Assembly: GCA_964534625.1 (NCBI GenBank)
Contig: CAZHRF010000056.1
Coordinates: forward strand, 1-15,558
Direction: 5' to 3'
Origin: an uncultured archaeon
Lineage (GTDB): Archaea > Asgardarchaeota > Heimdallarchaeia > Heimdallarchaeales > Heimdallarchaeaceae
DNA length: 15,558 nt
In this document: one piece after another, positions 6,334 through 11,108 of the stretch
How the letters are laid out: every line of letters begins with the position of its first letter
Numbering within the stretch: the stretch's first letter is position 1
Made by a program: the position numbers and the translations under genes
Notes under the pieces: model-generated
Database searches by the model: none
Told to the model about the DNA's origin: nothing
Seen by the model: only the letters and a program-made list of their open reading frames with translations

Positions 6334-6364
6334 ACATATCGAGGGATATCGATATGTTTATAAA
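6334..6364 (+). promoter_or_regulatory. Palindromic operator (ACATATCGA-N6-TCGATATGT) abutting an archaeal TATA box
   Basis: Perfect 9-bp inverted repeat at 6334-6342/6349-6357. TTTATAAA at 6357-6364. GGAGA ribosome-binding site at 6388-6392, ahead of ATG 6400. Confidence 0.75.
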
Positions 6365-6399: not shown

Positions 6400-6780
6400 A
6401 TGACCAAAGTAGGGTTTATTCTTTGTGTTTGTACTGGAGATTGTCCCGGATTCGCGACAATGAATATATGGGATCTTATCAATCAAGTTCGTCTTGTTTT
6501 ACCTGTCGAATGGGCTATTGTTCATCCACAGTTATGTGAAACTGACGGAGATAGATTTGTGGAGAATTTAATTCAACTTGTAAATGACACTCAAATGAAA
6601 TATTTCATTGCAGGTTGTTCACCTAATATGCAAAGAAAACTAATAGGATTTGGTTTCAAGAAAGCGGGATTAGACTTTAAAGAATGGGTCATGCCATTAG
6701 ATGTAAGAAACATGACAACTGATCAAGCTTTTGAAGCTATTGAAAAAACACTCGAAGAGTGGGGAGTTACTAATGAGTGA
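6400..6780 (+). CDS. Stand-alone HdrA N-terminal-like Cys-rich (putative Fe-S) protein
   Basis: KVGFILCVCTGDC...HPQLC...IAGCSP parallels the HdrA N-terminal domain (IGVYVCHCG...YMCS...VAACSP). No FAD-binding GxGxxG motif follows. Confidence 0.65.
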   Translation: MTKVGFILCVCTGDCPGFATMNIWDLINQVRLVLPVEWAIVHPQLCETDGDRFVENLIQLVNDTQMKYFIAGCSPNMQRKLIGFGFKKAGLDFKEWVMPLDVRNMTTDQAFEAIEKTLEEWGVTNE

Positions 6781-7075
6781 AGATAACCCCTCTATTCCCA
6801 AACAAATTCATAGATTCATGGGTGTAGATAGAAAACACATCGATTGGTTTCCCATTATAGATTATACCAAATGCAACCATTGTAAAGATTGTGTAGAATT
6901 TTGTGCTCATGGAGTATATACGATTAACGATGAAAAAGTGGAAGTAAAGAATCCAAAAGATTGTGTGGTTTTTTGCCAAGCTTGTATAAAAATGTGTCCG
7001 AAAGATGCATTGATTTTCCAAGATAAAAAAAGTGTTTTAAAGCAGATAAAACAAATTAAAGCATCAAAAAAATAA
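6773..7075 (+). CDS. 2x[4Fe-4S] ferredoxin
   Basis: CNHCKDCVEFC and CVVFCQACIKMCP cluster motifs, preceded by IDWFPIID. ATG 6773 overlaps the upstream gene and follows GGGGAG. Confidence 0.88.
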   Translation: MSEDNPSIPKQIHRFMGVDRKHIDWFPIIDYTKCNHCKDCVEFCAHGVYTINDEKVEVKNPKDCVVFCQACIKMCPKDALIFQDKKSVLKQIKQIKASKK

Positions 7076-7084
7076 TGCTAGAAA

Positions 7085-8002
7085 GTGAGTGAAGTTACAA
7101 TGGATTACTCGGAAAAATACAGATTTATTTCATGCATGGGCTGTGAAAAACTATTAGGACAAATAGCTACTGCCTGCAGTTTGCTTCTAGAAAAAAAACA
7201 AGAGGAATTGAACCTTATTTTCAAACCTTCCTTAGCACAAATTGCTGCAGACAAATCCAATGAATCAGAACATGAAATGGATATTATTGCTCTAAATGGA
7301 TGTATGTCACAATGTGTTAATGCCATTTTATCAAACAAGGGTTTGAAAGCATCATATATACTAAACATGCCTAAAATACTAAAAGAGTTTCAGATTCCAG
7401 AGGGAATCAAATATACCCCCGATTTATTAGAAAATCAAAGTATAGTCAATATCACTTCCGGAATTGAAAAAGCAATAATAGCGTTTTATGAGAAAAAAGA
7501 TAGTACAAGTGAAACAACAGCAATCTTTGATTTTACTCCTGAATATTCTAATACTTTAGAATTTACATATAGTAAGTTTCATTTCGTTGTTCCTGTCAGT
7601 AAAGGGCAACTTTATTTCAATTGGAATGATGCATGGGCATATGATATTGGGAACGGAAAGGTTGTTATTGGAATTACTGATTACCTCCAAAAAAATTTAT
7701 CCGATATAAGTTGGTGTGAATTTCCTGCTATAAATACAGAAGTAGGACAATTTGAAGAAGTTGCAACGCTTGAGTCTTATAAAACTGTAGTAGAGGTATT
7801 AAGTCCATTTAGTGGAAAATTAGTTCAAGTAAATAAAAAATTAGAAACTAATCCTGAATTAATAAATGATGATCCACATGGAAAAGGATGGATTGCAATT
7901 TTAGAAACACATAATCTTTCAGAGGAAAAAGAGGATTTAATGACCAGTGAACAATATTTTGAATTTATGAAAGAAAAAATAGAAGAACAAGGTGTACACT
8001 GA
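7085..8002 (+). CDS. Fusion of a DGC-like (putative zinc-binding) domain and a glycine-cleavage-H-like lipoyl domain
   Basis: N-terminal ISCMG...IIALNGCMSQC (DGC variant). C-terminal IGITDY...LESYKT...SPFSG...N-x-x-L-x-x-x-PELINDDP-x-GKGW. The lipoyl-acceptor Lys (K233, codon 7781-7783) is retained. Confidence 0.85.
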   Translation: MSEVTMDYSEKYRFISCMGCEKLLGQIATACSLLLEKKQEELNLIFKPSLAQIAADKSNESEHEMDIIALNGCMSQCVNAILSNKGLKASYILNMPKILKEFQIPEGIKYTPDLLENQSIVNITSGIEKAIIAFYEKKDSTSETTAIFDFTPEYSNTLEFTYSKFHFVVPVSKGQLYFNWNDAWAYDIGNGKVVIGITDYLQKNLSDISWCEFPAINTEVGQFEEVATLESYKTVVEVLSPFSGKLVQVNKKLETNPELINDDPHGKGWIAILETHNLSEEKEDLMTSEQYFEFMKEKIEEQGVH

Positions 8003-8424
8003 TGACTGAAACAAAAAAAGTGAACATATTACCATGTAGCGGTATTGGAAAAGCTTTAGGTACATTAGCACGTTGGAGTGCTTATGAGATTGTAGAAAAT
8101 ACATTACCTGAATATACGCGCTTACTCTGTCTAGCTAGATTAGTTGTAGCTGATGAAGAGTCTAAAGAAATAATCTCAAAAAATTTTAATATTACAATGG
8201 ATGGTTGTCCAAAAGCTTGTGCAAAAAAAAATGTTGAAAGAAATGGAGGAAAAGTGCAACAATCATATCAAATTGCGAAGTTTTTAGTCAAAAATCGAGA
8301 TTTAAAGATTAATTCCCAAAATGTGATCGACCCAGGTCCAAAAGCATTACAATTAGCAAAAAGAATTTCTGACGATATTGCAGTCGATATAAAAGCATTA
8401 CTAAGTGATAAGGAGGAAAATTAA
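8002..8424 (+). CDS. DGC domain protein (putative zinc-binding)
   Basis: ILPCSG...LLCL...TMDGCPKACA. TGATG stop/start overlap with the upstream gene. Confidence 0.85.
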   Translation: MTETKKVNILPCSGIGKALGTLARWSAYEIVENTLPEYTRLLCLARLVVADEESKEIISKNFNITMDGCPKACAKKNVERNGGKVQQSYQIAKFLVKNRDLKINSQNVIDPGPKALQLAKRISDDIAVDIKALLSDKEEN

Positions 8425-8426
8425 AG

Positions 8427-8852
8427 ATGAGTCCAGCAAAGCCAAAATATGTTGGATTATTATCATGTAGTGGAGAAGAGTACCCTGGGGGGACGGTAAG
8501 TCGTATTGCTACTAGGCGTGTTCTCCAAGATATGTTACAAGCAATAACCACCACTATTTGCGTACCACTATTCTTAGCCGGAGATGAACAAGAAAGGGAT
8601 TTCGTGAAGAAGTTTCCATGTGTCACAATAGACGGGTGTGAAAAAGCATGTGCAAAAAGAGCTCTTGATGAAATGGGAATAGAGCCAGTAGAAACAATAA
8701 TTTTGAATGACTATTTCACCGAAGAAGAATATAAAGAAATTTCTGAAGGATCTGTGCATGATTTAAAGTGGAAAGATCATCCATACTGTCAAAGATTAGC
8801 AGAAACACTGGCAGATATGGCTGTAAAAATAGTGAACCCTGATCAAGATTAA
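8427..8852 (+). CDS. DGC domain protein (putative zinc-binding)
   Basis: LLSCSG...TICV...TIDGCEKACA. GGAGG ribosome-binding site at 8412-8416. Confidence 0.85.
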   Translation: MSPAKPKYVGLLSCSGEEYPGGTVSRIATRRVLQDMLQAITTTICVPLFLAGDEQERDFVKKFPCVTIDGCEKACAKRALDEMGIEPVETIILNDYFTEEEYKEISEGSVHDLKWKDHPYCQRLAETLADMAVKIVNPDQD

Positions 8853-8895: not shown

Positions 8896-9315
8896 TTAAT
8901 TTTCTAAATGCTTTTGTATAATAGCTTTGAAAAAATTCGCATCGAATTCTTCATATTCTGTTTCAAGAACACTCCATTTTCCACTTTTCTCCATTCTGAT
9001 CGCTTTAGCATTAACTAATAAATTAAGGTGATGAGAAATAGTTGACTGAGATAATCCTGCAATATGTTCGATTTCGCAAGGGCATGAAATACCTTTCATA
9101 ATTAGTTTAAGTATTAAAAGTCTATTTTTATTGGCTAACGCCTTGAATAATCTTAACAATTGCTTTAACTCTGGGTCTTTTTCCCAATGGGCATATTCTT
9201 TTTTAATGAGGTCTAGTTTGTCTAAACGTTCTTCTAATGATTCCTTTATCAATCCTTGTTCATGTAGTTGATCTAGCTTGTCCTTTACTTCTTCATAGTC
9301 TACCTTTTTGTTCAT
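8896..9315 (-). CDS. arsR: ArsR/SmtB family transcriptional regulator with a CxC (alpha-3) site
   Basis: FKALA-x-x-x-RL-x-IL...SCPCEI...LSQSTISHHL-x-x-L, comparable to the ELCVCDL motif of As(III)-sensing ArsR. ATG 9315 is the likely start; 9339 and 9396 are alternatives. Confidence 0.88.
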   Translation of the reverse strand: MNKKVDYEEVKDKLDQLHEQGLIKESLEERLDKLDLIKKEYAHWEKDPELKQLLRLFKALANKNRLLILKLIMKGISCPCEIEHIAGLSQSTISHHLNLLVNAKAIRMEKSGKWSVLETEYEEFDANFFKAIIQKHLEN

Positions 9316-9493
9316 TGAATCACTTTGATTACTGTACATAAATTTTATTTTAGAAGTATAAATATATTTAGATATTAAAGAACGTGAATACGACACATCA
9401 TAACCAAAAAAATCACTAATATGAGCCTAAAGAAGAAAACCATTCAATAAAAGTATTATATTTCCTAAAAAAAATCTAGAAAAATCAGAATAC

Positions 9494-10370: not shown

Positions 10371-11108
10371 TTAATCATGTTCGTTACTAATAATTGGTTC
10401 AACATTATAAACGACTTTACCACCCCATCTCACTTCTCCTGTTCTGTAAATGGGATTATTGCGAATGTAATATATACCACTTTGAGAGAGGTTAAACCTT
10501 TCTGCTATGGTCTTGACCCTCACTCCCTGTTCTATCATAGAAAATATCTGCTCAACTATGAGTCTCTTTTCTTCATCAATCTCAAGTTTTCCTTCCACAT
10601 TTATTTTGTAGCCAAATGGTGCTCTTGTCATGGCTTTTTCTTCTTTGATCCTTCTTTTTCTTCCTTCTTTGGCTTTTTCCCTGTATTTTTTGAGTTCTTC
10701 TGCTCCCAATATATCTTTAACACGCCTAACTATCTCTTCTTTATCATCATCAACTGCGCAAATTTGGATATTTTCTCTCTTTAAAAGAATAGTAATGTGC
10801 CCTAAATAATCAATATCTCTGCTGAGTCTATCTCTTGTCTGGACCCATACTTCGTTTACTGAATTGTTTGTTTGTTTATTTTTATGAATATAGTCAAGCA
10901 AATTTTTGAATCCTGTCCTGAATTCCGGATCACTGTCCCCACTTACATTTTCATCTATAAAGAATTTGGAAATATAACGCTGAACTGAAGGATCTTTGGC
11001 TTCTAATTCATCTATATACTGATTAATCACCGCTTTTTGTGTTTCAATTCCAGATGATTGCTCATCAGTTGAGACTCGTAAATACCCTACTGCATGCACT
11101 AATGACAT
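10371..11108 (-). CDS. Serine recombinase: resolvase catalytic domain plus a short recombinase-like domain
   Basis: GYLRVST (catalytic Ser), Q, DENVSG...R-x-G and DRLSR motifs, then APFGY...IF...NPIY-x-x-G as in the DNA-binding recombinase domain. Confidence 0.9.
   Translation of the reverse strand: MSLVHAVGYLRVSTDEQSSGIETQKAVINQYIDELEAKDPSVQRYISKFFIDENVSGDSDPEFRTGFKNLLDYIHKNKQTNNSVNEVWVQTRDRLSRDIDYLGHITILLKRENIQICAVDDDKEEIVRRVKDILGAEELKKYREKAKEGRKRRIKEEKAMTRAPFGYKINVEGKLEIDEEKRLIVEQIFSMIEQGVRVKTIAERFNLSQSGIYYIRNNPIYRTGEVRWGGKVVYNVEPIISNEHD

Follow-up and report, generated by a model that had tools for sequence, protein, structure and literature searches.

A DGC domain joined to an H-protein lipoyl carrier in an ArsR-associated gene cassette of an Asgard archaeon

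In Mycobacterium tuberculosis, the Lpd-SucB(DlaT)-AhpD-AhpC relay uses a lipoyl arm to reduce a small cysteine adaptor, which in turn serves a final acceptor. Related arrangements have been described with carriers of the glycine cleavage H-protein type. The hydrogenosomes of Trichomonas vaginalis have a relay of L protein, H protein and OsmC (Nyvltova et al. 2016, as cited in PMC7946386), and a lipoyl-dependent Ohr is also on record (Cussiol et al. 2010, as cited in PMC12440151). In sHdr-LbpA sulfur oxidation, GcvH-like lipoate-binding proteins go together with a heterodisulfide-reductase-like complex (PMC10332631). Streptococcus and Staphylococcus have an operon of GcvH-L, SirTM, a macrodomain protein and LplA2 (structure 5a35; PMC12440151). 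The subject here is a gene in which a DGC domain is fused to an H-protein domain, at 7085..8002 on the + strand of contig CAZHRF010000056.1 from an uncultured archaeon of the Heimdallarchaeaceae. The window is the whole 15,558-nucleotide stretch of this contig that was analysed, and has a low G+C content of about 32%.

The fusion is classed here as an H-protein paralogue dedicated to a thiol or iron-sulfur (Fe-S) redox system. It is the third of five genes: open reading frame 1 (ORF1), which resembles the N-terminal domain of HdrA, a ferredoxin, the fusion itself, and two stand-alone DGC proteins, DGC1 and DGC2. An ArsR-family regulator lies just beyond. The preferred reading is a tentative one, held at somewhat short of even. 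It is that the fusion would be the central subunit of a five-gene, ArsR-controlled cassette, acting in a ferredoxin-fed lipoyl dithiol relay of the arsenic response. As such it would be a dedicated lipoyl carrier that does not serve glycine cleavage.

Through the fusion and its surroundings, the DGC domain comes to stand beside a cofactor and a signal that are both defined, namely the lipoyl arm and an ArsR of the type that responds to trivalent arsenic, As(III). An anonymous family is thereby opened to direct experiments. The fusion would also be a fourth kind of non-glycine-cleavage H paralogue, beside LbpA, GcvH-L and the Trichomonas H protein. It suggests that anaerobes, and among them Asgard archaea like the cultured Lokiarchaeum ossiferum, use lipoic acid in the metalloid response.

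How close are the described systems? In the M. tuberculosis relay, AhpD occupies a place to which DGC1 and DGC2 could be compared, as adaptors. Its carrier is however an E2 lipoyl domain, AhpD does not have the DGC fold, and there is neither an Fe-S input nor a fusion. The Trichomonas and Ohr relays, as far as the citing papers summarise them, likewise have an orphan H-type lipoyl carrier outside glycine cleavage, with a swinging dithiol that feeds a small cysteine enzyme. An unfused form of the cassette, described below, even carries OsmC and sometimes Lpd. Unlike those relays, the operon in the window is without OsmC or Lpd; it encodes a pair of Fe-S proteins and three DGC domains, and the carrier is fused to one of the latter. 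The cassette is also apparently under ArsR control, and in bacteria it lies in arsenic islands.

The sHdr-LbpA system shares with this locus a GcvH paralogue outside glycine cleavage that is encoded together with Hdr-type Fe-S proteins, ORF1 being similar to the HdrA N-terminal domain. The window does not however contain genes for HdrB/HdrC subunits with CCG domains, for the flavin-binding body of HdrA, for DsrE or for TusA, and DGC domains are no part of sHdr. There is no shdr cluster (hdrC1B1A-hyp-hdrC2B2) in the window, only the HdrA-N-like domain and the ferredoxin.

GcvH-L is similar in being a stress-linked extra H-like lipoyl carrier. It is a weaker structural match to the fusion, with a Z of 14.8 for 5a35 against 22.4 for a true H protein. 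The fusion also scores only 63.9 with the model TIGR03077 ('not_gcvH'), which has a cut-off of 144.05, and SirTM, the macrodomain protein and the ligase are absent from operon and window.

A last comparison is with ars operons that carry thiol accessories such as ArsD, ArsC, thioredoxins and ArsP. These too have an ArsR with a CxC pair, and bacterial copies of the cassette lie between ACR3, ArsP and ArsC genes. To our knowledge, however, no described ars gene encodes a lipoyl or DGC protein, and a literature search found no paper linking ars genes with either. Nor was a paper found on the DGC domain or on the cassette, in a search where 'DGC domain' is swamped by work on diguanylate cyclases. 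For the widespread family PF08859, no experimentally known function or solved structure was found.

The fusion gene encodes 305 residues when read from the GTG at 7085. Its domain composition is established. Residues 15-98 match Pfam DGC (PF08859) at 38.0 bits, where the cut-off is 27 (E 1.9e-9), and residues 176-297 match Pfam GCV_H (PF01597) at 112.1 bits, where the cut-off is 22.2 (E 2e-32). Both thresholds are exceeded within the one open reading frame, so the domain fusion that the original prediction had read from the letters alone is real, including an N-terminus that passes the DGC hidden Markov model (HMM). An HMM search of the whole genome returns the same DGC and GCV_H matches, with PF08859 at 40.3 bits.

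The true start is probably the ATG at 7100, because a Shine-Dalgarno-like GTGAGTGA is found just upstream and a 90%-identical homologue (P0001) starts there. From that start the protein would have 300 residues, and K233 would become K228. At its other end, the stop codon of the fusion overlaps the start of DGC1 (TGATG), and the two genes are therefore translationally coupled.

The H-protein or lipoyl carrier domain extends over 7550..7999 (+ strand), including an extra N-terminal strand that is specific to the cassette. D182-A183-W184 stands where ordinary H proteins have HEW. The lipoyl hairpin is E230-S231-Y232-K233-T234. The codon of K233, the predicted lipoylation site, is at 7781..7783 (+ strand). 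This lysine is found without exception in the 30 full-length family representatives and in all 75 cassette-type H domains, and E230 is invariant too.

An AlphaFold2 model of the fusion, based on the 30-sequence family alignment, has a mean predicted local distance difference test score (pLDDT) of 90.8. Residues 167-302 of this model superpose on the pea H protein (1dxm) with a Z of 22.4 and a root-mean-square deviation of 0.9 Å over 131 residues. Foldseek agrees on a canonical H-protein fold (E 1e-12).

All motifs listed in the original prediction (NGC, a strand-rich segment, DAW, and ESYKT with K233) can be found in the translation and in the family alignment. The description of one of them needs adjusting. 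The strand-rich TLEFTYSKFHFVVPV is indeed present at residues 157-171, but as the superposition on 1dxm begins at residue 167, part of this 'beta-rich segment' corresponds to the usual N-terminal strand of H proteins. The extra strand, which is common to unfused cassette H proteins, is confined to residues 156-166 or so.

The H domain of the fusion is set apart from glycine cleavage in several ways. The genome has a separate, canonical gcvH of 136 residues on contig C10, directly upstream of gcvPA; a search for such a gene had been proposed along with the fusion, and the fused domain turns out not to be the sole copy. The NCBIfam equivalog models for GcvH score the fusion under their cut-offs (TIGR00527, 96.6 against 115.85; NF002270, 110.7 against 117). 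Pfam annotation of the genes in the window found neither gcvT nor gcvP.

The phylogeny against GcvH that had been suggested also puts the fused domain outside the canonical group. In a tree of 102 rows, 75 cassette-type H domains split from 27 other GcvH with a support of 94 in the Shimodaira-Hasegawa-like approximate likelihood ratio test (SH-aLRT). The 54 fused H domains form a single clade in this tree (support 96), and the canonical GcvH of the genome groups with the GcvH of its relatives. The tree consists of rows of known gene context and includes no LbpA or GcvH-L sequences; its non-cassette H proteins were picked via shared motifs and relatives, and are not an exhaustive set. It replaces an earlier tree of 223 rows, which included proteins of unknown context and was too poorly resolved.

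The residues around the arm tell the same story. In E. coli, three residues of the H protein keep the aminomethyl-lipoyl arm in place, namely Glu-12, His-13 and Glu-14 (PMC7733448). Their equivalents in the fusion are N181, D182 and A183. None of the 75 cassette H domains has a His at the place of His-13 or a Glu at that of Glu-14. Glu-12 has no Glu counterpart in any of the 54 fused copies, though five unfused ones keep it. The 27 non-cassette H proteins have His in the middle position in 23 cases and Glu in the third position in 12. The residues of the aminomethyl cavity have, in other words, been lost.

The genome also contains a third GcvH paralogue, on contig C16 (L003:1471-1998). It has 175 residues, carries an Asp where the lipoyl lysine would be, and has a C-terminal tail that is long and acidic. 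Comparable copies without the lysine are found in related genomes (L013, L015, L019), and these form a clade of their own.

The fused N-terminal domain is called DGC0 here. Its Pfam match corresponds to 7127..7378 (+ strand), and in the AlphaFold2 model it is a three-layer alpha/beta domain of about residues 10-140. The signature is N71-G72-C73, which is NGC instead of DGC, with Asp changed to Asn. The cysteines of DGC0 are C17, C20, C73 and C77. It keeps G72-C73 and C77, and is without the second cysteine (the 'ICP' position) that is near-invariant in DGC1 and DGC2. Going by sequence, C20, which forms a CxxC with C17, may substitute for it. C17, C73 and C77 are invariant over the 30 full-length representatives of the fusion family, as are, among others, K164, W184 and K233.

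The best structural neighbour of the DGC0 model, H proteins aside, is an uncharacterised Wolinella protein (3pu6_A, Z 7.0). A model of the stand-alone DGC2 (pLDDT 92.9) is also a three-layer alpha/beta domain, with 6n2n_A (Z 8.5) and 3pu6_A (Z 8.2) as neighbours. As to the fold of the N-terminus, on which the original prediction could have failed, the two models have 3pu6_A in common as a top neighbour, at Z values in the range of common folds. The neighbours are generic, flavodoxin-like or transketolase-C-like, with a Z of at most 8.5, and no function is drawn from them. A profile of the DGC alignment found no relative among the sequences of the PDB; its best E-value was 5.4, to a designed protein. 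Homology of DGC to the HdrA-N/MvhD Fe-S domain, where both have cysteines at the ends of strands 1-3, was considered and rejected (hhalign probability 0.3%).

The original prediction took the fusion as Rosetta-stone evidence that DGC domains act on or with a lipoyl arm. For the DGC paralogues of the cassette, fusion and conserved adjacency support this. The link has independent backing from gene order in bacteria, where DGC1 and DGC2 come after an orthologous H gene that is not fused. It is not a strict Rosetta stone of split versus fused genes, because DGC0 is a lineage apart from DGC1 and DGC2, a third paralogue that was not seen as a free-standing gene among the DGC paralogues compared. The claim can also not be extended to all of PF08859, since other DGC genes adjoin an ArsP-type permease and a mini-thioredoxin, without an H protein. 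The genome under study has a fourth DGC gene (L005:3-1848, contig C2), beside an ArsP_1-type permease, a Thioredoxin_3 mini-thioredoxin and a P-type ATPase, and again without an H protein.

The gene order around the fusion is conserved. Loci were retrieved with a 12-sequence alignment, as the 30-sequence alignment has no sufficiently conserved stretch. Where the contig reaches, fused loci have the order ORF1, ferredoxin, DGC0-H, DGC1, DGC2. The ferredoxin is directly upstream of the fusion in 19 of the 20 fused loci with upstream sequence, preceded by ORF1 where the contig extends that far; in the one exception, the short contig L073, the genes are ordered differently. DGC1 and DGC2 come after the fusion in all 17 fused loci with enough downstream sequence. 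OsmC and Lpd are found in none of the fused loci, and ArsR is usually adjacent.

The unfused form is found in Geobacteraceae, Desulfotomaculum, Peptococcaceae, Chloroflexia and Gemmataceae. It consists of an orthologous H gene of about 150 residues, then DGC1, DGC2 and OsmC. An H gene followed by DGC1 and DGC2 occurs in bacteria of at least four phyla. OsmC is present in 12 of 12 unfused loci with room for it, ORF1 and the ferredoxin in none. DGC1 orthologues come after the H gene in fused and unfused cassettes alike, and the DGC2 orthologue group is also common to both. The window contains a cassette of this kind: its H gene belongs to the cassette clade, orthologues of DGC1 and DGC2 come next, and an ArsR is close by.

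An association with ArsR and with arsenic islands is observed as well. ACR3, ArsR, ArsC of the low-molecular-weight (LMW) phosphatase type, radical SAM/SPASM and DUF2703 genes are found near unfused cassettes. Some unfused loci, in arsenic-resistance islands, also hold an Lpd-type flavoprotein, LipA and an LplA/B ligase. A fused locus from Desulfovibrio has two ArsR genes, ArsC, an ArsP permease, thioredoxins, a thioredoxin-MerB fusion, AhpC/TSA and DsbD. All but one of the ArsR proteins near cassettes have, by eye, a CxC pair at the ELCVCDL position. The lone exception is the first ArsR of locus L049, which reads CVS there.

Some loci have further peculiarities. The thioredoxin-MerB fusion of the Desulfovibrio locus (alkylmercury lyase-like; L025:8956-10173) comes after the cassette, together with two further thioredoxin-fold proteins and the DsbD-type membrane protein. 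The same locus has a fourth DGC gene at 7998-8402, with a very high score of 110 bits. Three metagenome contigs (L056, L057, L059) have a third gene order, of ArsR, DGC1, DGC2, a gap of about 360 nucleotides and then the H gene; their H domains form a well-supported branch of their own.

In the window, the operon starts with ORF1 at 6400..6780 (+ strand), a free-standing protein of 126 residues. It has no Pfam match. Its profile matches three solved HdrA chains in their N-terminal Fe-S domain (7bkb, E 0.0013; 9sfi, 0.016; 5odc, 0.38), and it has five invariant cysteines, C9, C11, C15, C46 and C73. ORF1 is far more conserved than its neighbours, with a mean identity of 70% between Asgard and bacterial copies. 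The ferredoxin is at 6770..7075 (+ strand) and has two [4Fe-4S] motifs (Pfam Fer4_7, Fer4_10, Fer4_9). Its ATG at 6770, from which the homologues align, overlaps the end of ORF1.

Downstream of the fusion are DGC1 at 8002..8424 (+ strand; 140 residues, four cysteines, Pfam DGC 51.8 bits) and DGC2 at 8427..8852 (+ strand; 141 residues, 66.8 bits). The ArsR-family gene (Pfam HTH_5) is at 8896..9396 on the - strand, convergent with the operon. It has a CxC pair (SCPCEI) at the As(III)-site position of ArsR.

A perfect 9-6-9 inverted repeat, ACATATCGA-N6-TCGATATGT, is found at 6334..6357. It abuts a TATA-like TTTATAAA, and the two together, at 6334-6364, lie about 36 nucleotides before the first operon gene. 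The repeat is unique in the window, and none of 200 shuffles gave a match. It is a candidate ArsR operator of the operon.

Lipoylation genes are encoded in the genome. The lipoate synthase and ligase that were to be looked for are there: LipA scores 361.7 bits against a cut-off of 310.25, and there are two LplA-B_cat proteins. LipA adjoins a transferase, and the second ligase is beside an Lpd-like gene.

Under the preferred relay reading, K233 would be lipoylated by LipA together with the lipoyl-transferase or ligase of the genome. Low-potential electrons would pass from the ferredoxin to the HdrA-N-like ORF1, and from there to a cysteine or metal site of DGC0. That site would reduce the lipoyl disulfide on the same polypeptide. 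The dihydrolipoyl arm would then swing to DGC1 and DGC2, where it may keep cysteine clusters reduced, or exchange with them a ligand bound to thiols, As(III) for example. The whole gene set would be turned on by an ArsR of the As(III) type. In the unfused version, an Lpd-type flavoprotein (encoded in the cluster in some loci, otherwise the cell's own) and the OsmC-like protein would replace the Fe-S pair and DGC0.

It is further conceivable, though unlikely, that this is a ferredoxin-driven enzyme system of anaerobes in which a protein-bound lipoyl dithiol and DGC domains together do arsenic chemistry, by binding, reducing or transferring As(III) or organoarsenicals. If true, DGC would be a previously unrecognised metalloid-handling catalytic domain, with an H paralogue as its built-in cofactor arm.

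A number of points weigh against the relay. The fusion model has a predicted template modelling score (pTM) of only 0.64, which leaves open the relative placement of the two domains. The structural neighbours of DGC are only generic alpha/beta folds (Z 7-8.5), and profile comparison shows no relation of DGC to the Fe-S domain of ORF1. The cofactor of DGC may be Zn, Fe-S, a disulfide or As, and biochemical data on any DGC protein were not found in the literature. No arsenic pump is adjacent in the window, ACR3 being on another contig, and because of this it is the ArsR, along with other genomes, that carries the arsenic link here. Finally, the fusion, the presence of ORF1 and ferredoxin, and the absence of OsmC all fall within a single clade. 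That they go together is therefore in effect one evolutionary event, and not repeated independent evidence.

Other explanations start from the same facts. The lipoyl dithiol and the three invariant DGC cysteines might bind As(III) or methyl-As(III) directly, as a metalloid chaperone or sink. The carriers would then pass arsenic towards an efflux pump or strip poisoned lipoyl enzymes, and the Fe-S proteins would only keep the arm reduced. The vicinal dithiols of dihydrolipoamide are a classic As(III) target, and the three cysteines of DGC0 would suit the S3 co-ordination by which As(III) is typically bound in ArsR, ArsD and ArsM. The near-universal CxC pair in the adjacent ArsR proteins, the ACR3, ArsP and ArsC islands, and the stand-alone DGC genes beside an ArsP-type permease and mini-thioredoxin fit as well. 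Binding alone, however, needs no Fe-S carriers, Lpd or OsmC-fold enzyme, yet one such set is conserved, and the window has no pump gene. This explanation is rather unlikely. Less probable again, and distinctly so, is a defence against peroxide or thiol stress of the Lpd / H protein / OsmC kind. Here the lipoyl arm feeds a peroxidase or disulfide reductase, DGC proteins are adaptors like AhpD, and the ArsR-family regulator senses redox state instead of arsenic. That OsmC, and sometimes Lpd, comes directly after the DGC genes in unfused cassettes would be explained, as would the AhpC/TSA and thioredoxin genes after the Desulfovibrio cassette. Lipoyl-dependent OsmC/Ohr peroxidases are also known, to go by the accounts of Nyvltova 2016 and Cussiol 2010 in PMC7946386 and PMC12440151. 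It fits poorly with the fused type, including the window, where the operon lacks both OsmC and peroxiredoxin; in bacteria, arsenic genes accompany the cassette with far greater regularity than peroxide genes do, and the regulators keep their metalloid-type CxC site.

When S. aureus is under oxidative stress, its GcvH-L both protects lipoate and passes it on (PMC12440151). By this precedent, the fusion could be a protected reservoir or relay of lipoate, like GcvH in Bacillus and GcvH-L in S. aureus, that keeps lipoate in store during stress and hands it to 2-oxoacid dehydrogenase or glycine-cleavage proteins, with the DGC domains shielding or regulating the arm. Three Bacillota-type loci do have LipA and/or an LplA/B ligase beside the cassette (L028 and L072; L027, ligase only). 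Such a role is nevertheless very improbable: none of the fused operons contains a ligase or amidotransferase, and pure storage has no use for conserved Fe-S partners and two further DGC proteins. A plain glycine-cleavage H protein with an accessory zinc-binding domain is hardly credible at all. Public records do name family members 'glycine cleavage system protein H', and the fold is that of a canonical H protein, but the evidence contradicts it: the separate gcvH next to gcvPA, the distinct clade, the lost cavity residues, the equivalog scores below cut-off, and a window without gcvT or gcvP.

The fusion is more widespread than a single genome. The domain architecture was searched for, as had been proposed, in an exhaustive HMMER search over 1.84 billion representatives, which gave about 30 full-length fusion clusters at 50% identity. 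The named members are from Promethearchaeota (Lokiarchaeia), Thorarchaeota and one actinomycete. Scans of genomes and metagenomes add Ca. Harpocratesius repetitus, the cultured Ca. Lokiarchaeum ossiferum, Desulfovibrio sp. UBA6121 and many metagenome contigs.

Among 400 Asgard species genomes, 67 have a match at E below 1e-50, in 32 of 85 genera. About 60 of these are full-length fusions; three weak ones are of the H domain only, and a few run off the end of their contig. The fusion is absent from all 30 other genomes of the family to which this archaeon belongs, which makes the distribution patchy and would fit lateral acquisition.

Beyond Asgard, the family reaches Desulfovibrio, Actinomycetes and Bacillota. 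The ESM Atlas has at least five clusters with GCV_H and DGC, the top three with 56-107 members each, mostly Bacillota. The fusion architecture is already visible in public databases, where it has been named automatically.

Two further genes in the window may be mentioned. An LMW-phosphatase (ArsC-like) gene is found at 2032-2427, about 4 kb upstream of the operon, and a serine-recombinase (resolvase) gene at 10371-11108, about 1 kb past ArsR.

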